Shown here: piece by piece, positions 2,647-35,894 of the stretch
Layout of the letters: the number at the start of each line of letters is the position of its first letter
How positions within the stretch are numbered: the first letter of the stretch is position 1
Assembly (NCBI GenBank): GCA_039927395.1
Contig: JBDSUZ010000296.1
Coordinates: 1-45,193 of the forward strand
Length of the DNA: 45,193 nt
Reading direction: 5' to 3'
Source: Saprospiraceae bacterium
Lineage (GTDB): Bacteria > Bacteroidota > Bacteroidia > Chitinophagales > Saprospiraceae
Position numbers and translations under genes: made by a program
The notes under the pieces: model-generated
What the model saw: the letters and a program-made list of their open reading frames with translations, nothing else
The model's database searches: none
Told to the model about the DNA's origin: nothing

Positions 2647-4413
2647 TTAAAATTCCAAGCGATATACGGGATATCGATTGTGACTCGGCTCATAATATGG
2701 AGAATGCTTGTACACCCAATCCAGTTGAGCTTCGCCAGATGAATTCAGAGCATTATCTGTCGATTTTGCCTTTTCAAAAGCCGCTTTTAGTTCAGGGTCA
2801 TTCTCAAGCATTTTAGCCGCTTGATCTTCGAATACATAAGCACTATAACCCTCCTTCTGCATCAAAATGGAATCAAAGTAATTCCACGCAAAAAAGGCAT
2901 CAGGTGCATTTGGCTCCAGTGTCTCAATGATATACCTATTCTTAGATTGATTGCATGGAATATAGAAATCTCCTTTACGGCAAGCCACTCGTATTTCCTT
3001 CTTGTCGGCCACGACACCGTAATGCAAATAGTGCCCTTCGTAAGGACTTGGACTGCTCTGATACTGCTTGATAAAATATGCGCTCAAGGTCATAATGGTA
3101 TCCTTTTGCAGAACTTCCATCGCTACACCATTCCATTCTAGCCGGCGAATGACATCTTCCCAAGCCTGAGGGATTATATATGCTTTAGGCTTTTGGACAG
3201 TGTCGGAGGCGATACAATAGCTATAGAAAGGGATGTCTTTTTCAAATGGCTTTGATCTATCAAAAAACATTCGCTCTTTGCCTGAGACACCACTCTTGAG
3301 CATTTCACTTTCATATCCCTTGAAATGCACCTTTTCAGATCGAGTCCGATCTGATGCCCACCTGATCGGAAACTGTTCGGCATTAGCAATATTTAGACGG
3401 TCGATCGCCTTGATATTACGGATTTTATTGCCTGATTTATAAAGAAATTCTCCCAGCACCACCATCAGATCATATGTTGATTTGACCCTTTGAGGAAATG
3501 GTTTTAGCATATGGGTCTCTGGGACTAGGCCAATTATTTGATGAAGCGCTGCATAACCTGAGGTATATCGTGGGTCATCAATAAATGAGGGAATTTCGCT
3601 GACATTGGTGCCGTGAACATTGATATATGGTACCATATCCCAATGTTTTTTCTTCATCGCTGAGTAGACCTCCGGTAGCATTTTATCGCGCAAAAATTTG
3701 CCACTTTCACCCCCCAGTTTGTCAGCTTGAGTGGCTAGCAATGTCATGGTATGTTGATAGTCTGCTCCATTGGACGTGTGATTATCGACTAACAGATCTG
3801 GGTCAAGCCAAGTGATCAATTGATTGAATAATCTCGCTTCCCTAGTATCAGTCTTGATACAATCCCGGTTGAGGTCATAGTTTTTTGCATTGCCTCTAAA
3901 CCCATATTCATCCGGTCCATTTTGACTTGCTCTTGAGTATTTGTTGCGATTATTGGCCCCGCCAAGATTATACATCGGAATGCACACAAAAACGACCCGG
4001 TCCAACAAAGATTTTAATTCAGGATTCTGCATAAGATCTCTGAACAACATCATTGTGGCGTCCACACCTTCAGGCTCTCCCGGATGTATCGCGTTGTTGA
4101 TCAGTATTATGGCCTTGCCCTGACGATGCAGGTAGATTGGGTCCATATTGGGCTCGTTTGTACAAAAAACTGTCTGCAAGGTATAGCCACCGTCAGTCGC
4201 ACCGAGTGGCATAATCTGAATCTGAGAGTAGGTGGCCGCTAGGCGTTCATAATATGCCATACATTCTGATGGTGTAGCCGAATGCGAAGTATCAATTTCA
4301 AATGGGGTAAGCCAGCTCTTGTCTTGGCCATACACCTTATTGCCAATCAATAAGAATATGGCTGAAAAAATAAAAGCACAAATGCGAACCATTCTCTTGA
4401 AATTCATAGCCAT
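2647..4413 (-). CDS. M14-family zinc carboxypeptidase, secreted
   Basis: Has the HPGEPEG (HxxE) zinc motif. An internal ATG at 4413 gives MAMNFKRMVRICAFIFSAIFLLIGNKVYGQ, a clear signal peptide. The longer ORF to 4719 overlaps the opposite-strand gene 4572..4922. Confidence 0.8.
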   Translation of the reverse strand: MAMNFKRMVRICAFIFSAIFLLIGNKVYGQDKSWLTPFEIDTSHSATPSECMAYYERLAATYSQIQIMPLGATDGGYTLQTVFCTNEPNMDPIYLHRQGKAIILINNAIHPGEPEGVDATMMLFRDLMQNPELKSLLDRVVFVCIPMYNLGGANNRNKYSRASQNGPDEYGFRGNAKNYDLNRDCIKTDTREARLFNQLITWLDPDLLVDNHTSNGADYQHTMTLLATQADKLGGESGKFLRDKMLPEVYSAMKKKHWDMVPYINVHGTNVSEIPSFIDDPRYTSGYAALHQIIGLVPETHMLKPFPQRVKSTYDLMVVLGEFLYKSGNKIRNIKAIDRLNIANAEQFPIRWASDRTRSEKVHFKGYESEMLKSGVSGKERMFFDRSKPFEKDIPFYSYCIASDTVQKPKAYIIPQAWEDVIRRLEWNGVAMEVLQKDTIMTLSAYFIKQYQSSPSPYEGHYLHYGVVADKKEIRVACRKGDFYIPCNQSKNRYIIETLEPNAPDAFFAWNYFDSILMQKEGYSAYVFEDQAAKMLENDPELKAAFEKAKSTDNALNSSGEAQLDWVYKHSPYYEPSHNRYPVYRLEF

Positions 4414-5880: not shown

Positions 5881-7137
5881 TTACAGGTCCAGAAGCAACA
5901 AGGAGGGATCTTCTAATAGATTTTTGACTCTGACAAGGAAGGTAACGGAAGAACTTCCATCGATTACTCTGTGATCATATGAAAGCGCCAGATACATCAT
6001 TGGACGGATTTTTATTTCTCCTTTGATCACCATCGCCCTTTCTAGAATGGCATGCATGCCTAGAATCGCCGATTGTGGTTCATTGATAATCGGAGTGCTC
6101 ATCATCGATCCGAAGACGCCTCCGTTTGTGATGGTGAATGTTCCTCCTGACATTTCTTCAAGGGTCAATTTGCCTCCACGAGCTTTTTCTGCGAGGACCT
6201 TTACTTCCTGTTCGATCTGGGCAAAGCTCAAGGATTCAACATTCTTGATTGGAGGAACCACCAAACCAGTCGGTGTTGAAATTGCAATTGAGATATCAGC
6301 ATAATCGTGGTAGATCAGCTCCTCATCAAGGATTTGTGCATTGACTTCGGGCATTTCCAAAAGCACTTTTGCGCAGGCCTTAGCGAAAATGCTCATGAAA
6401 CCCAGTTTGATACCATTCTTCTTGACAAATGCGTCCTGATACTTACTTCGCATGGCCATAATCTCGGTCAAATCCACTTCGTTGAAAGTGGTGAGCATCG
6501 CTGTATTGTTTTTTGCTGAGACCAAACGCTTGGCGATAGTACGCCGCATTCTACTCATCTTCTCTGTCCGAGTATTTCTGCTAAATGTCGATGGAGTTTC
6601 AGATACCGTTACCTGCAGAGCATCTTTTGGCTCAGTTGCGGGACTTTGGCTTGAAGCTTTTTCTGCGTCTTCCTTAGTGATACGTCCATCTCTTCCGCTC
6701 CCAGCAATGCTGTCTGGCAGGATATTTTTCTCAGCCAAAATCTTGTTTGCCGCAGGTGAAGGATGACCTTTAGCATATGAATCAGATTCGCTCTTAGTAG
6801 CCTGCTTTTCAGGAGCAACACTAATTGTAGCAGCCTCTTGTTTTTCAACTTTAACAGGCTCATCTGCTATTTTTTCTTCTTTAGCAATTGAAGCTTTGGC
6901 GCTCGTATCAATTCTGGCAACAATGGCTCCGATAGCCAGATCGTCACCTTCTTTTGCAACACGGATTAACTTACCAGCAACTTCAGCTGGAAATTCTAAT
7001 GTTGCTTTGTCGGATTCAAATTCGCAAATTGCTTCGTCCAATTGGACCATTTCGCCCTCCTGCTTGAGCCATTTGGCCAAAGTAACTTCGGTGATTGATT
7101 CGCCGATAGATGGAACTTTCAAATCGATAATACTCAT
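5881..7137 (-). CDS. sucB: dihydrolipoyllysine-residue succinyltransferase (E2 of 2-oxoglutarate dehydrogenase)
   Basis: N-terminal lipoyl domain ([14 protein letters not shown]), an Ala/Pro/Glu-rich linker, and a C-terminal catalytic domain ending in [10 protein letters not shown]. Confidence 0.9.
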
Positions 7138-7180
7138 AACCAGTTTTTCAAATTCAACACTTAATGCTCTGAATTGACTG

Positions 7181-7188
7181 CAAAGTTA
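7181..7188 (-). promoter_or_regulatory. candidate Bacteroidota -7 box TAACTTTG upstream of sucB
   Basis: The reverse complement of caaagtta matches the TAnnTTTG consensus. It sits 44 nt upstream of the sucB ATG. No convincing -33 element seen. Confidence 0.3.
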
Positions 7189-7337
7189 ATCCTTTTCGAA
7201 TCCTTACTTATCAGTAAATCCTTTATTTCCTATGGACCAAAGGAATACTATGGGCATTTTGGACTAAGTCGATGCTCAGCTGATCCACAAAATTTGATAC
7301 TTGATATAAGATCTCAGATTATAAATTGTTCAAATCT

Positions 7338-7345
7338 TAACTTTG
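7338..7345 (+). promoter_or_regulatory. candidate Bacteroidota -7 box TAACTTTG upstream of the DUF5916 gene
   Basis: Matches TAnnTTTG and lies 21 nt before the ATG at 7367. This argues against the earlier alternative start at 7343. Confidence 0.3.
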
Positions 7346-7366
7346 TATCAATACGCCCGTGTAAAA

Positions 7367-9844
7367 ATGAGACCAGCTTTACTGTTTGTACTCTTACTGT
7401 CTGTAATCAATTGCCTTGCGCAGGTTGGGGGCAAAAAGATAATTGCCACGCCATTGGTGGGAAATATCAACATTGATGGAAAACTCAATGAAGCAGCATG
7501 GTTTGATGCAATGCCTGGCGAAGATTTTGTCCAACGAAGCCCCAATCCCGGAGCTGCAGCCTCACAAAAGACACAGGTAAGGGTACTATATAGCTCAAAA
7601 TCCATTTTCGTAAGTGCTTATTGCCACGATACGCTACCACAAAGCATAAGCCGCCAACTGTCTAAGAGAGATCAAGTGGACAATGCTGATTGGTTTTATG
7701 TGGCCATTTGCCCTTACAGGGACGGGCAGAATGGCACCGCATTTTCCGTGACTGCAGCTGGTGTGCAGCTTGATCTCAAGTTGTTGCCCGATGACGAAGA
7801 TTTTACTTGGGATGCGGTTTGGAAGTCTGCGATTTCATTTCCAGGAGATGGATGGATCGTAGAAATGGAAATTCCATATTCAGCACTGAGATTTCCCTTG
7901 TCAGATATGCAAACATGGAGCATCAATTTTGGACGAAATATTCGTCGTTTACGCGAAGAATCATGGTGGAATCCAATCAATCCAGCGATTGATGGCTTCC
8001 TAAACCAGTCGGGCCAGATCGAAGGAATCAGGGATATCAAATCGCCTTTACGATTGTCCATCAACCCTTACCTCTCTGCATATCTGCAATGGGATAAGGA
8101 TCCAGAAACTGAATTCAATCAAAAATCCAGTTCTCTCAACGGTGGTATGGACATCAAGTATGGTATCAATGATGCATTTACAATCGATATGACACTAATT
8201 CCCGATTTTGGACAGACCAGATTCGATAATAAAATACTAAACGTCAGCCCTTTCGAAATACAATACGCAGAGAACAGAAATTTCTTCACAGAGGGGACAG
8301 AACTATTCACTAAAGGGAACCTATTTTATTCGCGCAGAATTGGATCTGAGCCCTATGATCTTGAGAAAGTTGAAGGACAATTATCACCCGTCGAAACAAT
8401 AGTAAAATATCCACTTCAAAATCGTCTGATCAATGCCTTGAAATTGTCGGGCAGAACAAAAAAGGGATTGGGGATTGGTGTATTTAACGCTGTGGAGGCC
8501 AGAAGTTTTGCTCATATCGTCAATGGCGAGACTGGGCAAGTCAAAGATGTGACCATCAATCCCCTGACAAATTATTCGGTGGCGGTGCTAGATCAAAATC
8601 TTAAGAACAATTCCTCCATCACACTGCTCAACACAAATGTCAGCAGAACAGGTTCAAATAACAATGCCAATGTGAGTAGTTTGCTCTATAATTTACGCAA
8701 CAAAAAGAATGATTATTACACTGGAGGACATATTAAGTACAGCAATAAGAGATTGAGTTCAAGTGACATAAAAGAGGGTTACAATATGAATCTGGCCGCA
8801 GGAAAAAATAGCGGCAAATTTACTTATGAAGCCAATTATCAAATTTCAAGCCCTGATTTTGATCCAAATGATCTGGGGTATCTGGCATTTACCAATTATA
8901 AATTTTTGAACCTTTCTGGCGAATATTCTGCCTTCAAGCCATTTTGGAAATTCAATGAATTGCAGACCAGCATCGAGTTTGACTATAATCGATTATATAA
9001 GCCAGATCATTTCACCGCTGCCTCCATCAGCGCAAGATTCTTTGCTACCACAACGAAGTTTCACGCCATGGGCGGATCATATAAGTATGTGCCAGTCAAA
9101 ACCTTCGATTATTTTGAGCCTCGCAGTTCAGATTTTAGCCGCTATTTACTTGTTCCAGAGAAAATATCGCTTAATCCTTGGATATCAAGTGATTACAGCA
9201 AGAAATTTGCGATCGATATGGGCGTTGGCTTTGATTATTTTGCTGAATACGGGCGAAAATCCAATAATTTTTACGTTTCACCGCGCTATCGATTTTCAGA
9301 TAAATTCAAAATTATTCTCCATCAGGGCTGGAAGTGGCTTTATAACAATCCCGGTTTTGTAAGACCGAACATTAGTGCCGTTGGATATGCGTCAATAAAT
9401 ACCGGAGATATTGTCATTGGACAGAGAAACCTCAGAATCGTCGAAAGCAGAATAAGCGCAGAATATGCCTTCAATAATAAAATGGCAATTACGCTGGAAG
9501 CGAGACAGTATTGGAACACAATTCAATACCGTCAATTCAAATTATTAGCAGCGGATGGCAATTTGATTCCTACTGAATATTTGGGTAGAAATGATGTTGA
9601 AAAACATCTGCATGATATCGATTTCAATATCATGAATATCGATCTGTCCTATTCTTGGAGGTTTGCTCCTGGAAGTGACCTCTTTATAGTGTACAAGCAA
9701 TTTATTCAGGGAAATGAAGAACAAATCAACATTGATTATCCTTCCGCTATTCGAGGTCTATTTGCAAATTCCGAAAGCAATAATATCTCGCTCCGTATAG
9801 TGTATTATCTGGATTATCAAATGATCAAGAAAAGGGCAAAATAA
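7367..9844 (+). CDS. CBM9-like / DUF5916 domain protein (probable outer-membrane or secreted)
   Basis: The ATG at 7367 gives the signal peptide MRPALLFVLLLSVINCLAQ. The N-terminal DGKLNEAAW...F.Q..P region is typical of the CBM9-like domain that precedes DUF5916. Confidence 0.65.
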   Translation: MRPALLFVLLLSVINCLAQVGGKKIIATPLVGNINIDGKLNEAAWFDAMPGEDFVQRSPNPGAAASQKTQVRVLYSSKSIFVSAYCHDTLPQSISRQLSKRDQVDNADWFYVAICPYRDGQNGTAFSVTAAGVQLDLKLLPDDEDFTWDAVWKSAISFPGDGWIVEMEIPYSALRFPLSDMQTWSINFGRNIRRLREESWWNPINPAIDGFLNQSGQIEGIRDIKSPLRLSINPYLSAYLQWDKDPETEFNQKSSSLNGGMDIKYGINDAFTIDMTLIPDFGQTRFDNKILNVSPFEIQYAENRNFFTEGTELFTKGNLFYSRRIGSEPYDLEKVEGQLSPVETIVKYPLQNRLINALKLSGRTKKGLGIGVFNAVEARSFAHIVNGETGQVKDVTINPLTNYSVAVLDQNLKNNSSITLLNTNVSRTGSNNNANVSSLLYNLRNKKNDYYTGGHIKYSNKRLSSSDIKEGYNMNLAAGKNSGKFTYEANYQISSPDFDPNDLGYLAFTNYKFLNLSGEYSAFKPFWKFNELQTSIEFDYNRLYKPDHFTAASISARFFATTTKFHAMGGSYKYVPVKTFDYFEPRSSDFSRYLLVPEKISLNPWISSDYSKKFAIDMGVGFDYFAEYGRKSNNFYVSPRYRFSDKFKIILHQGWKWLYNNPGFVRPNISAVGYASINTGDIVIGQRNLRIVESRISAEYAFNNKMAITLEARQYWNTIQYRQFKLLAADGNLIPTEYLGRNDVEKHLHDIDFNIMNIDLSYSWRFAPGSDLFIVYKQFIQGNEEQINIDYPSAIRGLFANSESNNISLRIVYYLDYQMIKKRAK

Positions 9845-12076
9845 TCATCGCGTTATTACGCCAAGTTCTGCTGCTGATATAAATGGTTTACCATCAGCAG
9901 TCTCCAAGAAATTCCATTGAATGTATCGTGTTGACAACGGTGCTGAAAACATGATCTTCTTAGGATTTCGATCCCTTAGTACATTATCAAGCTTATCTGA
10001 TATCAAAGGCACAATCACCCAATCCTTTCCATTGTTACTTGCTCTAATTTCAATTTTTTGAGGTAGCCCATCGCGGATATCGATTGGTGCTTGGTAGCTC
10101 AGTCCTCTAAGGCTCAGGCTATCGCCAAAATCAATGCTCAATGACTGTGGCAAATTGCCACCAGATTGATTTGAGATCCAAATTGTGGCTGGGTCGCCAT
10201 CAATGGCATTGTTTGCACTATAATAATCTGTAGAAAGTTGACTTGAGAACTTGCTAATTCTCCACTTTGTCGGTGGAATATCGAAAGAGGCCGAAGCTAC
10301 CATTGACCTTCGATTACCACTGACGCTGATGGCTTTGACAGTACCTCCCTGCGGCAAATCGACTGGAAAGAAGAATGTTTCAGATTGAAATGTCGGAATC
10401 GTACCATCAATCGTGTACTTAAATTTTTCCGACGATGGAATGCTGCTAAAAAATACTCGCCCTTGCTTATCGCGACGAATCGTAGGAGTAGGCATTCTGA
10501 TCTCGCGGTTGTAAACCGCTATTTCGGACAAAACCGGCATACCCCTGCAAGACAGGATCCGCAATCGCAATTGATTAGATCGGACGGAAATACTGCGGAT
10601 CAATTTGCGATATCCGACGGTTTGGCCTTTGCCAATTTCTTCCCAGTGGTTGTCAATCCAAGCGTCGATGGTAAACGATTCGATACGTTGACCTGTTTTG
10701 GAAATTGGTTCTCTCAATTCCACAACATTAAATTCCTTGAATCCCTTGTCGAACTCCAAATACAGCTCGTATGTTTTAGCATTCAGTGCAGGAGTCCACA
10801 CGGTCTGCGAATTACCGTCGGTGAGATTGCGGGAGCGATAACGTGCATTTTCATGGATGGTGATGACATCGGCCTTCAAAGCTAGGTTATTGGAAAATGT
10901 CCGTTTGATTTCTGCTCCCATTGCTTCAAGTGTTGCGGCATCCTTGCGTGGAATCTGGCCAGTTCGATCTGGCGTCATATTTAGCAAAAACACAGAATTA
11001 CCACCCACGGAATTGTACCAGACATCTAATAATTCGTCCTGACCTTTGAGAAATTGGAGTGTATCTCGATAAAACCAACCGTAGCGCATGGAGGTATTAG
11101 TCTCTGCGGGATACCAGTATAGAAATTTTGCTTTTGCTAGCTTGTCCCGACTCCCTAGGTCTGCTTCCATGCGATCTTGCCACCGCTGTTCGAGAACAGG
11201 GGCGTCGAGTGGAATCACACTCCATTCGGACCCACGCGTGTTGCCTGCTTCGTTGCCACACCATCTGACATCAGGTCCTTTGACTGCAATGACGGCATTG
11301 GGCTGTAATCGGCGAATCAGTTGATACCAGGCTTGATAATCGTAAGTTTGAGATCCGGGCTTTGGATTTGCTCCGTCTAACCAGATTTCACTTACAGGGC
11401 CATAATTCAGTAACAACTCTGCGAGCTGCTCCATATAGTACTTGTTGTAGTCATCAACCAAGTACGGCATCGAATCTCTGTGGCCACTCGGTATATAGAC
11501 CAATTGTGACTTGCTTCCATTGCCATAACGCTTCCCGGGCAGCATTTCGTGGAGATCGGCAGGGGATAGATAAAATCCAAGACTTAGCCCAGCGGCATGG
11601 CAAGAATCTGCCAATGATTTCATCAAATTAGGATCGGCCGGAGAGTTCTTGATCGAGTGATCTGTCCATTTACTTGGCCACATGCAAAATCCGTCATGGT
11701 GCTTTGCTGTGAAAATCAATCCTTTCATTCCAGCAAGTTTGGCTGTGCGAATCCATTGTGAGGGGTCGAGATTTGACGGAGAAAACTGGGAGGGCAATTC
11801 TGTGCCAGTTCCCCATTCATTTCCTGTAAATGTGTTCATACCAAAATGTATGAATCCAATAAATTCTTGCTCCTGCCATTTCATCTGACGAAGTTCGGGA
11901 CGAACTTCAGTTGCCAATTGAGCAATTTGTTCAGCATTGTATCCCGGTGGAACCGCAACTATCGGGTTGGGAGGCATTTCAGGCCAAATTCCGGACGAGC
12001 TGCTCTTACAGCCATTGAATATTAACATGCCCAACACAGAGAGCCAACAAATAAACTTAATGGGGTCTTTTTTCAT
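9845..12076 (-). CDS. GH29 alpha-L-fucosidase with C-terminal F5/8 type C (discoidin) domains
   Basis: Signal/lipoprotein N-terminus (LIFNGCKSS), the GH29 core motif FTAKHHDGFCMWPS, and a C-terminal NAIDGDPATIW discoidin-type motif. Confidence 0.85.
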   Translation of the reverse strand: MKKDPIKFICWLSVLGMLIFNGCKSSSSGIWPEMPPNPIVAVPPGYNAEQIAQLATEVRPELRQMKWQEQEFIGFIHFGMNTFTGNEWGTGTELPSQFSPSNLDPSQWIRTAKLAGMKGLIFTAKHHDGFCMWPSKWTDHSIKNSPADPNLMKSLADSCHAAGLSLGFYLSPADLHEMLPGKRYGNGSKSQLVYIPSGHRDSMPYLVDDYNKYYMEQLAELLLNYGPVSEIWLDGANPKPGSQTYDYQAWYQLIRRLQPNAVIAVKGPDVRWCGNEAGNTRGSEWSVIPLDAPVLEQRWQDRMEADLGSRDKLAKAKFLYWYPAETNTSMRYGWFYRDTLQFLKGQDELLDVWYNSVGGNSVFLLNMTPDRTGQIPRKDAATLEAMGAEIKRTFSNNLALKADVITIHENARYRSRNLTDGNSQTVWTPALNAKTYELYLEFDKGFKEFNVVELREPISKTGQRIESFTIDAWIDNHWEEIGKGQTVGYRKLIRSISVRSNQLRLRILSCRGMPVLSEIAVYNREIRMPTPTIRRDKQGRVFFSSIPSSEKFKYTIDGTIPTFQSETFFFPVDLPQGGTVKAISVSGNRRSMVASASFDIPPTKWRISKFSSQLSTDYYSANNAIDGDPATIWISNQSGGNLPQSLSIDFGDSLSLRGLSYQAPIDIRDGLPQKIEIRASNNGKDWVIVPLISDKLDNVLRDRNPKKIMFSAPLSTRYIQWNFLETADGKPFISAAELGVITR

Positions 12077-33046: not shown

Positions 33047-33414
33047 TCCTGCTTTTCGGCGCCTGATTCTTTAGGTAGCTTTCAAAAATTCTTGATTTTT
33101 ATATACCTGTAAGAGCGCAATGATTTGGACAATCCTTATGCAACCTATAGGGCAAGAGGTGCACACATTTCATTTAATAACAGCATTTGAATCCTACGGA
33201 TTCATAAATCCCAATCAAACTTGACAATCGAGCCTTCTTCAATCCCAGAGGGATTGAATGTTGTTAGTAAGTAGTGTCCCGAGAATTACGACCCCCGAGG
33301 GGTCGAATGTGATAAAATGGAAATAGAAGCATAGAATTTTTCACGCTCCAAATTCAATCGTTTCACATACACAGGGGTCTTGTTTACCATATAGATACTC
33401 GATGCGACCCCCAC

Positions 33415-33440
33415 GGGTAGGGTGTCCAATGTGTTGTTTC
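33415..33440 (+). repeat. IS left terminal inverted repeat
   Basis: 26/26 match to the reverse complement of 34968-34993. Confidence 0.9.
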
Positions 33441-33523
33441 AAAAAAAATCATACATGTTCTATTAACTATATGTATAATCAATTGATTGTATGTAATTTT
33501 ATAATGAACTCAACTAAGAAACT

Positions 33524-33763
33524 ATGAAAAAGGAGACTACAACAAAAGATGAAAACGCTCAATTGATAAAAGCCCTCACGAAGGCGAATAAAGAGAAAGA
33601 GCAACTTGCTAGAAAATTGGAGCAATCAAAAGTCAAAACTGAGCAACTTAAGAAGGAATTAAAAAAAAACGACGTTCGGACAGTGGTGTTGACCAAAGAA
33701 CAAGAACTATTACTTTCGAACCTATCAAAAGATATGAATATTCCGAAATTATTGTCCGATTGA
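33524..33763 (+). CDS. IS orfA: 79-aa lysine/glutamate-rich coiled-coil protein
   Basis: ATG start. Heptad-like sequence KANKEKEQLARKLEQSKVKTEQLKKELKK. Contains the A9 slippery run and ends with a TGA overlapping orfB. Confidence 0.65.
   Translation: MKKETTTKDENAQLIKALTKANKEKEQLARKLEQSKVKTEQLKKELKKNDVRTVVLTKEQELLLSNLSKDMNIPKLLSD
33661..33669 (+). promoter_or_regulatory. A9 run, candidate programmed -1 ribosomal frameshift or transcriptional slippage site joining orfA to orfB
   Basis: In the orfA frame the sequence reads TT-A-AAA-AAA-AAC, which contains an A_AAA_AAA heptamer. The orfB frame is open from 33652, so the run lies inside the frame-overlap window. Confidence 0.6.
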
Positions 33764-34962
33764 GTACTACGCTCTATACCCAAGTTAATTGTGGTTTTCG
33801 TCAAGTAGTCGAGATTTTAAATATTCTAAATGGCGCTTTTGATGGACTTCTTGGAAAAATTCCCAGTCATAATACAATAGAAGATTGGGTTAAAAAGTGT
33901 GGATTAGAAGTTTATGAGAAAGCAGGAGAGGCGTTACGAAATACCAAATATGCACAAATAGTAGATGAAAGTATGATGATTGGCAGTGAGAAATTACTGC
34001 TGACACTGGGTGTTCCGGCAGAACATCAAGGACGCCCTTTAAACTATTACGATATCAATATTCTAAATATAGCAGTATCTGAGAGTTGGAATGGAGAAAA
34101 AATTGGAGCACAACTAAAAGCAGCAACAGAAAAAGTCGGCCATGAGCCACTCTATATCATCAGTGATAATGCCTCAGTGATGAACAAAGGAATAAGATGT
34201 TCGGGAATCCCTCATCGAAGAGACATAAGTCATTCTTTAGGGATGCTATTGGAAAGGATTTATAAGAATGAGGCCGATTTCAAAGAGTACCTAAAACTTA
34301 TGACAGAACCCAAATTTAAGTACAATATGAAGAAAATAGCCTACCTACTCCCGCCCACACAGCGCACTGTTGCCCGATTTATAAATCTATCGGAGTGGGT
34401 AAAGTGGTCGACTAAAATGCTTAACATATATAATAGACTATCGAAGGATGAACAAAAGGTATTCTCTTTTGTCCCCCTCAACGCATCGTTGATAGATGAA
34501 TTGTCAGAAGCACTAACATGTGTGAACTCAATAGAATCCATATGCAAGACCAAAGGCTTTTCAAAAGAAACAGTAAAAGAATGTAAACTAACAGTCAAGA
34601 AGCATCTATTCTGCGGCAATTCCAGGATGATCCAGTTGGGAGAATCCATTTTTGCATTTCTTACTGAGGAAGCAAAGGCTATCAAAGCCAATATTGTCCA
34701 AAACAATTCATCAGATATTATAGAGTCTGTCTTTGGGAAATATAAAGCCCGCAAATCGTTCAATAAGCTAAATGGTGTTACTCCGTTTATCCTGTTTATT
34801 CCTATTTGTGCCAAATTAAGCAGCGAACCTCACAGGAAAAGACATGATTTTAAAGGCGCTTTGGAAAATAAAACGATGAACCACTTAGAGGATTGGAAAA
34901 AAGTGCACTTGACACAAAATCTTGCACAATTGCGAACCTATTGTTTAAGAAAATCAGCGTGA
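33760..34962 (+). CDS. IS orfB: DDE-type transposase catalytic part (probably expressed as a 479-aa OrfAB fusion)
   Basis: Candidate catalytic motifs are IVDESMMIG, YIISDNASVM and SSDIIESVFGKYKAR. There is no ATG/GTG/TTG in this frame between 33652 and the TTG at 33760. Family not assignable by eye. Confidence 0.7.
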   Translation: MSTTLYTQVNCGFRQVVEILNILNGAFDGLLGKIPSHNTIEDWVKKCGLEVYEKAGEALRNTKYAQIVDESMMIGSEKLLLTLGVPAEHQGRPLNYYDINILNIAVSESWNGEKIGAQLKAATEKVGHEPLYIISDNASVMNKGIRCSGIPHRRDISHSLGMLLERIYKNEADFKEYLKLMTEPKFKYNMKKIAYLLPPTQRTVARFINLSEWVKWSTKMLNIYNRLSKDEQKVFSFVPLNASLIDELSEALTCVNSIESICKTKGFSKETVKECKLTVKKHLFCGNSRMIQLGESIFAFLTEEAKAIKANIVQNNSSDIIESVFGKYKARKSFNKLNGVTPFILFIPICAKLSSEPHRKRHDFKGALENKTMNHLEDWKKVHLTQNLAQLRTYCLRKSA

Positions 34963-34967
34963 TTCTA

Positions 34968-34993
34968 GAAACAACACATTGGACACCCTACCC
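34968..34993 (-). repeat. IS right terminal inverted repeat
   Basis: 26/26 match to the reverse complement of 33415-33440. Confidence 0.9.
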
Positions 34994-35033
34994 CACAGGG
35001 TCGAAGACTATTGACTACTCCATTTACTACCAA

Positions 35034-35300
35034 CATTTGAATCCTACGGATTCATAAATCCCAATCAAACTTGACAATCGAGCCTTCTTCAATCCCAGAG
35101 GGATTGAATGTTGTTAGTAAGTAGTGCCCCATGAATTACGACCCCCGAGGGGTCGAATGTGACAAAATGGAAATAATAGCATAGAATTTTCACGCTCCAA
35201 ATTCAATCGTTTCATATACACAGGGGTCTTGTTTACCATATAGATACTCGATGCGACCCCCACAGGGTCGAAGACTATTGACTACTCCATTTACTACCAA
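35034..35300. repeat. intact reference unit of the array (module A 35034-35110, module B 35111-35300) with four perfect hairpins
   Basis: H1 is GAATCC-tac-GGATTC (35039-35053). H2 is TTCAATCCC-aga-GGGATTGAA (35088-35108). H3 is CGACCCC-cga-GGGGTCG (35139-35155). H4 is CGACCC-ccaca-GGGTCG (35254-35270). Confidence 0.9.
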
Positions 35301-35432
35301 CATTTGAATCCTACGGATTCATAAATCCCAATCAACCTTGACAATTGAGCCTTCTTCAATCCCAGAGGGATTGAATGATCCAGACAGGTAAATAAAAATC
35401 AGCAACAGAGGTCCCTGGGCTATCAAGCAATC

Positions 35433-35894
35433 TCAATCAGGAATTGACTCATTCCTCTGGCCACTTAAATAAATATTCAACTCTTTCAAAATGTCAATGA
35501 ATTCTACTTTGAAAGATCTTTTCTTGTGATGCTCCTTCTGATTTCGAATGTATTTCATAACACCATCTATCTGTCCTTCACTGTAAGAAAATGCTCCATA
35601 ACCTTCCTGCCAACTAAATGGAAATCTACAGAAACCGCGTTCATAAATAAACTGATTCGACGATTTCTTGATTTCCCGTACTAAATCTGACAACTTACAT
35701 GTTGGCCTCATTCCAATCAGTATATGAATATGATCTGGCATCCCATTGATTGCCAGCATCTTTTGCCCCTTCAATGAAACTATTCCTGAAATGTATCTAT
35801 ATAATTCTTCCTCCCATTGGGGTTGAATAAAACTCTCTCTACCCTGAACGGCAAAGATGATTTGTATATGTATTTGCGTAAATGTATTTGGCAT
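35433..35894 (-). CDS. HUH/Y1 single-strand DNA transposase, IS200/IS605 TnpA-like (RAYT-like)
   Basis: 153 aa with the HUH motif in MPDHIHILIG, the WQEGYGAFSYS segment and a C-terminal tyrosine motif KYIRNQKEHH. ATG start. Confidence 0.8.
   Translation of the reverse strand: MPNTFTQIHIQIIFAVQGRESFIQPQWEEELYRYISGIVSLKGQKMLAINGMPDHIHILIGMRPTCKLSDLVREIKKSSNQFIYERGFCRFPFSWQEGYGAFSYSEGQIDGVMKYIRNQKEHHKKRSFKVEFIDILKELNIYLSGQRNESIPD

Follow-up and report, generated by a model that had tools for sequence, protein, structure and literature searches.

Why does an array dense in small hairpins lie beside a gene for a Y1/HUH transposase, and do the two belong to one system? The question is raised by a 45,193-nt contig from a Saprospiraceae bacterium (Bacteroidota; assembly GCA_039927395.1, contig JBDSUZ010000296.1), the whole of which we call the window. 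A first-pass annotation, made from the letters alone, had described a head-to-tail array at 33184-35377 and had proposed it as the cognate repetitive extragenic palindromic (REP)-like substrate of a neighbouring REP-associated tyrosine transposase (RAYT). The hairpins are specifically linked to Y1 genes of another kind, subclass 1.2, in the window, at orthologous loci and across phyla. The substrate proposal thus stands as the best reading so far as it joins hairpins to Y1 enzyme, and falls where it calls that enzyme a RAYT. The array, which ends 55 nt from the stop codon of the Y1 gene, is probably a locally amplified cluster of modules, similar to the bacterial interspersed mosaic elements (BIMEs) of the REPtron system, and a companion to that gene, with the modules serving as its cognate single-strand DNA sites.

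The hairpin module and its link to Y1 genes

Alignment of many hairpins gives a module of about 39 nt. It consists of an A/T-rich head of about 10 nt, (T)CTATAAACAT, one spacer base and a 7-bp stem that ends in CC, and is therefore CC/GG-closed, around a loop of 3-4 nt (TAC, TAAC or TTC). Modules lie in both orientations at a pitch of about 50 nt. In the window the head reads CTACCAACAT in H1, which is on the plus strand, and CTAACAACAT in H2, which together with H3 is on the minus strand. The annotation was right that each unit holds four perfect hairpins: H1 is TGAATCC-tac-GGATTCA, H2 is TTCAATCCC-aga-GGGATTGAA, H3 is CGACCCC-cga-GGGGTCG and H4 is CGACCC-ccaca-GGGTCG. Their positions are collected with those of the other features in Table 1.

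The same module can be recovered in the window with a model that has never seen it. Covariance model R2 was built from Y1-flanking hairpins of other organisms, with no window sequence used, and was run over the whole 45 kb. It matched all three copies of H1 (39.6, 39.6 and 32.7 bits; E = 1e-5 to 3e-4), two copies of H2 (34.5 bits, E = 1.5e-4) and part of a third, which fits model positions 13-39 alone. The two copies of H3, themselves perfect hairpins, gave weak and marginal matches (21.3 and 22.6 bits, E = 0.04-0.07), and the rest of the window had no match. H4 matched neither R2 nor a second covariance model, R1. The H1-H4 motifs do not recur elsewhere in the window. Rfam assigned neither the window nor six further arrays to a family, and its sole match was to a CRISPR repeat, unrelated to the modules, at one locus (L019).

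The link to Y1 genes is clearest at 80 metagenomic loci, 419 kb in total, collected by a profile scan with an alignment of 20 orthologues. The Y..Q..HH motif is present in the Y1 proteins of 78 of them. Perfect CC/GG-closed hairpins occur at 3.4/kb in the 300 nt upstream of Y1 and 3.5/kb in the 300 nt downstream, against 0.08-0.10/kb more than 1 kb away and inside the Y1 open reading frame (ORF), an enrichment of about 40-fold on both sides. Counting from the head alone guards against circularity. The head TATAAACAT occurs 98 times where about 3 occurrences are expected. Of the 98, 81 fall within 500 nt of a Y1 gene, and 68 have a perfect stem of 6 bp or more directly behind them, compared with about 1% of random 30-mers. 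Model R1 gave a similar picture, with 133 of its 150 top matches within 500 nt of Y1, three beyond 1 kb, and a modal module spacing of 50 nt. At least one strong R1 match was found in 44 of the 80 loci, and matches on both sides of the gene in 18.

The stems are kept as stems while their sequences differ between lineages. In the stem alignments 91.9% of cells are paired, against 69.6% in shuffles and 36-56% when the alignment is slid, and 262 cells carry double changes, against 72 in shuffles. As these alignments were selected or fitted for pairing, the test anchored on the head is the cleaner evidence. Variants of the head motif track Y1 lineages, which suggests co-evolution with the protein. 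Some lineages have variant heads that the models miss, although inspection by eye reveals an identical arrangement; these heads include CTACAAATAT in Bernardetia and, elsewhere, CTACAATAAT and CTATTATGAT. The 50-65% of loci with recognised modules is therefore a lower bound.

We also searched without reference to Y1. A scan of species-representative genomes for exact H2 (TTCAATCCCNNNGGGATTGAATG) found 15 loci where our estimate was about one, from Bacteroidota, Ignavibacteria, Chlorobiaceae, Acidobacteriota, Verrucomicrobiota and others. Some 25-45 nt past H2 there is usually a hairpin resembling H3, its stem altered by compensatory changes. Thirteen of the 15 loci carry bona fide modules and three have a Y1 homologue. 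The remaining two were set aside. A KSB1 locus (L003) has the H2 pattern, is not matched by the module model and was treated as unrelated. In an archaeal metagenome-assembled genome (MAG) of the Methanosarcinales (L012, about 2600-2800), an H2-identical hairpin lies inside an unrelated tandem repeat of about 47 nt; the module model has no match there, so that this is probably a palindrome by chance. Four loci (L006, L008, L009 and L015) are solo intergenic clusters with no Y1 gene within at least 1.5 kb. In a Chlorobiaceae MAG, a solo cluster separates holA from an ECF sigma gene. Further ones border a cation-efflux gene in a Prolixibacteraceae MAG, in which two contigs carry clusters. Overall the module family looks low-copy and gene-hugging rather than abundant.

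Table 1. Features of the array and its neighbourhood in the window (strand left empty where none is assigned)
Feature	Coordinates	Strand	Evidence and further copies
Array unit 1, left part: diverged first H1 head, A1, and B1 as far as the H4 loop	33171..33414		Repeat family D1; model match 33172-33210; orthologous flank in L110
Insertion sequence splitting H4 of unit 1, not part of the array	33415..34993	+	Terminal inverted repeats 33415-33440 and 34968-34993; CAC at 33412-33414 and 34994-34996
Rest of unit 1: second CAC, H4 3' arm, B1 tail including the next H1 head	34994..35033		
Unit 2 (A2 + B2), uninterrupted, 267 bp	35034..35300		
Unit 3, module A3 alone, 2 substitutions	35301..35377		
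H1 module: CTACCAACAT + T + TGAATCC-tac-GGATTCA	35022..35060	+	Also 33172-33210 and 35289-35327
H2 module: CTAACAACAT + T + CAATCCC-tct-GGGATTG	35084..35122	-	Also 33234-33272, and 35351-35377 with the head cut at the array edge
H3 module: degenerate head ...GTCACAT + T + CGACCCC-tcg-GGGGTCG	35133..35171	-	Also 33283-33321
H4 hairpin: CGACCC-ccaca-GGGTCG, head weak or absent	35254..35270		Unit-1 copy split by the insertion sequence: 33405-33414 and 34997-35003
Y1/HUH gene, 153 aa, IS200-like subclass 1.2 by sequence	35433..35894	-	PF01797, NCBIfam, motifs

The enzyme gene, the array and their relatives

The protein encoded beside the array is an HUH/Y1 enzyme, as had been annotated (Pfam PF01797, E = 3e-24). 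It passes the NCBIfam IS200 model (63.4 bits, cutoff 55) and fails the REP_Tyr_transpos model (27.5 bits, cutoff 80). The HUH motif (DHIHIL) and the tyrosine motif (KYIRNQKEHH) are intact, and SWQEGYG and KYIRNQKEHHKK can also be recognised. The Y---Q--HH signature is that of subclass 1.2 (Quentin et al. 2018, PMC6006769), and the DH[IV]H and WQ motifs and the length of about 150 aa agree with that subclass; the C-terminal tail is disrupted. Judged by these sequence features, the enzyme is an IS200-like member of subclass 1.2 and not, as first supposed, of the RAYT clade (class 2). Its sequence matches include PDB entries 2fyx and 2xm3, and DHIHIL and KYIRNQ align with ISDra2 TnpA. It has more than 8,000 homologues, the closest about 70% identical, which their sources label "IS200/IS605 family transposase" or "RayT". 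Subclass 1.2 is described as having 1.7 copies, with low identity within a genome (PMC6006769); the window has one copy. Exact-protein look-ups returned a single 2-kb Logan contig, which ends inside module A, and the look-up for P0039 gave no match.

The gene has begun to decay, which the annotation had missed. Between GAGTTGA direct repeats, at about 35483/35484, 19 nt are missing. The frameshift that this causes puts 13 unrelated residues in the place of the conserved C-terminal ...IEFxxEYLFxW; YLFKW can still be read in another frame. At its other end the gene starts 22 bp past the stop of an AMP-dependent ligase gene, with no space for repeats upstream.

The array sits between convergent 3' ends, those of a dksA-like gene and of the ligase/Y1 side. 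Sequence reading and a repeat scan place the 77-bp module A at 33184-33260, 35034-35110 and 35301-35377, the first two copies being identical, and there are two copies of the 190-bp module B. The A-B-A-B-A composition originally described is thus real. Its head-to-tail contiguity is not, as an insertion sequence (IS) of 1,579 bp, which the annotation left unmentioned, makes up about 72% of 33184-35377. The same interruption explains why Tandem Repeats Finder reported no repeat for the array. Excision of the IS and of one CAC leaves a unit 1 of 268 bp, which differs from the 267-bp unit 2 by seven substitutions and one indel, exactly the earlier count. That the third unit stops at the end of module A was also confirmed: the right edge falls exactly after ...GGGATTGAATG, and a relative (L110) has the same right junction. 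The true left edge is at about 33171, some 13 nt to the left of 33184, because the head of the first H1 belongs to the repeat. Both strands of 35022-35377 fold as single-stranded DNA far better than shuffles (z ~ -5.2).

The 267-bp unit is a higher-order repeat of modules spaced about 50 nt apart in mixed orientation. It has four recognisable hairpin modules whose spacing falls in multiples of roughly 50 nt, and module A is itself an inverted-head doublet, CATT-H1...H2-AATG. The building block is therefore the 39-nt head and hairpin, rather than the 267-bp unit that had been taken for it. By eye, a fifth and decayed module can be read in B (GGGGTC + TTGTTTACCATATAG, about 33374-33394); the models miss it.

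If the link is real, orthologous Y1 genes should also have such repeats nearby, and besides the enrichment at the 80 loci this is seen in two close relatives of the gene. Directly past the stop codon of a 70%-identical Y1 (L018-L020) lies a tandem array of 141-bp units with three hairpins each. Two assemblies with identical gene context there have 4 and at least 8 units. A 71%-identical Y1 (L017, 9880-10600) interrupts an NADH dehydrogenase operon between nuoJ and nuoK and runs on the same strand as these genes; on its two sides lie exact copies of two hairpins, inverted relative to each other. Gene and flanks together make about 720 bp, and their insertion in this operon implies recent mobility of the Y1 gene together with its flanks.

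Two further observations concern these and other relatives. In L018/L019 (about 7000-10000) the Y1 gene and its array come directly after a type II CRISPR-Cas9 locus (Cas9, Cas1, Cas2), where the repeat after Cas2 has an Rfam CRISPR-DR2 match just below threshold; the adjacency is possibly coincidental. On a Bernardetia megaplasmid (NZ_CP147018; L109, 19876-19990 and 20480-20570) a 53%-identical Y1 has two modules on each side, inverted about the gene. These have the variant head TTCTACAAATATT and a weak AGCTGCGTAGCT-type (AGCT-type) stem and were read by eye. R1 has no match around this Y1 gene and the covariance models miss its modules, so that strict module counts underestimate the association.

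The most direct comparison is with L110 (Logan SRR24605843), which is syntenic with the window (94.6% nucleotide identity in the dksA-like gene, 91.9% in the ligase gene). Its orthologous locus (2913-3487) has, between those two genes, a single copy of head plus A, 100% identical to A1/A2, with neither B nor the IS. Array size is thus polymorphic at this very locus. The comparison fits both directions of change, expansion from A and collapse from A-B-A-B-A, and among the other loci fetched none contained module B. The Y1 gene of L110 is a pseudogene that has lost 45 nt and, through a +1/-1 frameshift pair, its HUH motif, with the C-terminal tail intact. L110 and the window acquired their damage independently, and in this lineage the enzyme gene is in decay. 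With a frameshift at the 3' end of Y1, an IS in H4, and a relative left with one A doublet and a dead Y1, the system looks worn in this genome.

The interrupting insertion sequence

The IS has perfect 26-bp terminal inverted repeats (GGGTAGGGTGTCCAATGTGTTGTTTC) and a CAC duplication, and sits in the loop of H4. Its transposase is split at a run of nine As (33661-33669) into ORFs at 33524-33763 and 33760-34962 (79 and 400 aa), with a switch to the -1 frame at A AAA AAA; homologues with a single ORF have 476-489 aa. No Pfam family matched the transposase and the NCBIfam ISH6 match was sub-threshold only. Its predicted fold, modelled at moderate confidence (predicted local distance difference test score, pLDDT, 68.7), is nearest to the DDE transposases of ISCth4 (IS256 family) and Hermes (hAT).

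Eight other copies of this IS (L101-L108, from three genomes) are all inserted at the loop or centre of a short CCC...GGG palindrome. Six of them have loop duplications of 3-5 bp, for example GCCCT-GTA-AGGGC and CCCC-GTA-GGGG. Two copies in one genome (L102 and L103, about 133 kb apart on the same contig) have no duplication and their flanks are apparently swapped. Pairing the flanks crosswise rebuilds a GGCCC-gaaa-GGGCC hairpin with a CGAAA duplication, which suggests a rearrangement between the two copies.

Insertion into the loop or centre of short extragenic palindromes is also the habit of IS1397, ISKpn1 and ISPpu9 (PMC1525189); the IS in the window differs in having a transposase outside any Pfam family, with ISCth4 and Hermes as the nearest relatives of its model. 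It is a new case of transposon homing to hairpin loops. This homing shows that the hairpins are recognised at the level of DNA.

What kind of partnership

The modules would be the DNA recognised by subclass 1.2 Y1 enzymes. By analogy with TnpA-REP and the TnpA of IS608, the enzyme may act on single-stranded DNA, binding the hairpin and its conserved head jointly, cutting nearby through a 5'-phosphotyrosine link and rejoining strands. The analogy draws on published experiments in vitro with TnpA-REP and BIMEs (PMC3333891). Rounds of cutting and strand transfer, or plain slippage between modules some 50 nt apart, could then multiply blocks into higher-order units such as the 267-bp unit seen here, and the same processes would alter copy number between strains.

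The closest parallel is the REPtron/BIME system of E. coli, with its TnpA-REP/RAYT enzyme. In both, short GC-rich hairpins are clustered beside a single-copy Y1/HUH gene. Every hairpin has a conserved tag on its 5' side, and the hairpins are regularly spaced in both orientations and amplified in tandem as composite units (267 bp in the window, 141 bp in L018/L019). In both systems the clusters are extragenic, vary in copy number between strains and are targets of other ISs (PMC3333891, PMC2817692, PMC1525189). Tandem composite clusters beside a Y1 gene had been thought unlike the classical arrangement. They are not, as BIME-2 elements flank rayt in E. coli and roughly a third of RAYTs lie directly against BIMEs (PMC2817692, PMC3333891). 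The differences lie elsewhere. The enzyme in the window is by its sequence of class 1, subclass 1.2 (IS200-like). Its tag is a CTATAAACAT-like A/T-rich head of about 10 nt, where the REP tag is GTAG or CGTC. The module head is conserved across phyla and REPs are lineage-specific. Modules look low in copy number genome-wide, whereas REPs often exceed 100 per genome.

In sequence the Y1 protein is closest to the IS200/IS605 enzymes (IS608, ISDra2), with the same HUH and Tyr motifs, and the gene and flanks of L017 have the size of an IS200-like element. The arrangement of the DNA is different: in place of a single left-end (LE) and right-end (RE) hairpin on the same strand, module arrays flank the gene in inverted or direct orientation, and we saw neither multi-copy identical elements nor tnpB. 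The published description of subclass 1.2 fits in its motifs, length, conserved C-terminal tail, low copy number and presence in Bacteroidota (PMC6006769). It departs from our loci in recording no REPs, whereas here a conserved head and hairpin flank many members, and some members also lie in Ignavibacteria-type contigs.

Several observations weigh against reading the array as a BIME-like companion of the enzyme. Under strict definitions only about half of the Y1 loci show modules. The symmetry of the flanks is uneven, with inverted repeats dominant in 19 of 67 loci, direct repeats in 18 and neither in 29. The window has modules on the 3' side of Y1 only and none elsewhere in its 45 kb. At more than 1 kb from Y1, module density is near chance (0.046/kb, against 0.029/kb in shuffled sequence), and the 100-nt two-module stretch upstream of the Bernardetia Y1 has three matches in the 601-kb megaplasmid. 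The sole survey of subclass 1.2 that we found lists 'REP: no' and no typical terminal structures (PMC6006769). As the Y1 genes of both the window and L110 are damaged, present-day activity is doubtful, and array expansion may owe nothing to the enzyme. Nor do array junctions give a single cleavage position. At the right edge of the array in the window the break is just ahead of CAT, for a 25-nt duplication in L019 it is just past CAT, and at a further junction it falls within a stem. Because these disagree, we dropped the inference of a cleavage position.

The crowding of modules around Y1 could instead mean that they are the multiplied ends of an IS200-like transposon, in which modules, Y1 and modules form the mobile unit, the array is junk from end duplication, and no REP-like population is acted on in trans. 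The varied settings of the Y1 genes (a nuo operon, a CRISPR-Cas9 locus, a ligase gene in the window), the inverted module ends of the small, IS-like insert in L017 and the few copies in the megaplasmid all suit this account. We consider it unlikely, as the solo clusters lie between ordinary genes at least 1.5 kb from any Y1, arrays of at least 24 hairpins surpass any need for transposon ends, and flanks that are inverted or direct repeats of each other are unlike the same-strand LE and RE hairpins of IS608. The low published copy number and the dissimilarity of copies within a genome (PMC6006769) also speak against it. It is somewhat less likely again that the arrays are independent of the enzyme, serving in host-factor binding, termination or genome structuring, and that the Y1 element merely prefers to insert there, like the IS in the window. 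The 18 loci with Y1 embedded between direct repeats look as if the gene had inserted in an array, solo clusters outnumber Y1-linked ones in the Y1-blind H2 scan, a second and unrelated IS family targets such loops, and H2 with its T-rich run scores as terminator-like. Independent arrays should, however, also occur in the 260 kb of far flanks, where they do not, and the head variants CTACAAATAT, CTACAATAAT and CTATTATGAT track Y1 lineages. Even this alternative leaves the modules as DNA recognised by Y1, and in both accounts they are still the enzyme's DNA partner.

A role as structured RNA, with the hairpins as 3' untranslated region stabilisers, terminators or a small-RNA array regulating Y1 or the convergent dksA-like gene, would part the modules from the enzyme altogether. 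Covariation of the stems, the position between convergent 3' ends and the terminator-like scores of two H2 copies could be taken that way. We give this very little credence. Modules point both ways within a single array and occur on either side of Y1, so that no single transcript would carry the head in one sense; Rfam has no family for these arrays; a DNA transposon targets the hairpin loops; and the enzyme next door is a single-strand DNA endonuclease. A BIME-like cluster of DNA sites paired with the subclass 1.2 enzyme remains the reading that we favour.

Systems of this kind, a REP/BIME population with a Y1 enzyme, are already known. The link to this enzyme subclass, the long head that spans phyla and the low-copy, array-forming habit are not described in the searchable literature, and we found nothing relevant there on the head motif or on substrates of subclass 1.2. 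Whether subclass 1.2 Y1 genes and their modules form a third Y1-hairpin partnership, beside IS200/IS605 and REP/RAYT and unnoticed so far, is in our view finely balanced. Its marks would be a head, CTATAAACAT, nearly invariant across phyla, and modules that are low-copy, gene-hugging, array-forming and unstable in copy number.

Subclass 1.2 Y1/HUH genes abound in Bacteroidota and also occur in other phyla, and thousands of genomes label such genes "IS200/IS605 transposase" or "RayT" with no known DNA partner or activity. A family said to have no partner repeats thus gains a candidate substrate, and as this is a conserved 39-nt sequence the enzymology can be tested directly with oligonucleotides. 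The covariance model provides an annotation marker for such elements. The partnership would also account for a class of unstable intergenic tandem repeats at which assemblies of Bacteroidota and related phyla break. It would extend the REPtron idea beyond the RAYT clade, and bears on how often Y1 transposases were domesticated or spawned non-autonomous hairpin repeats.

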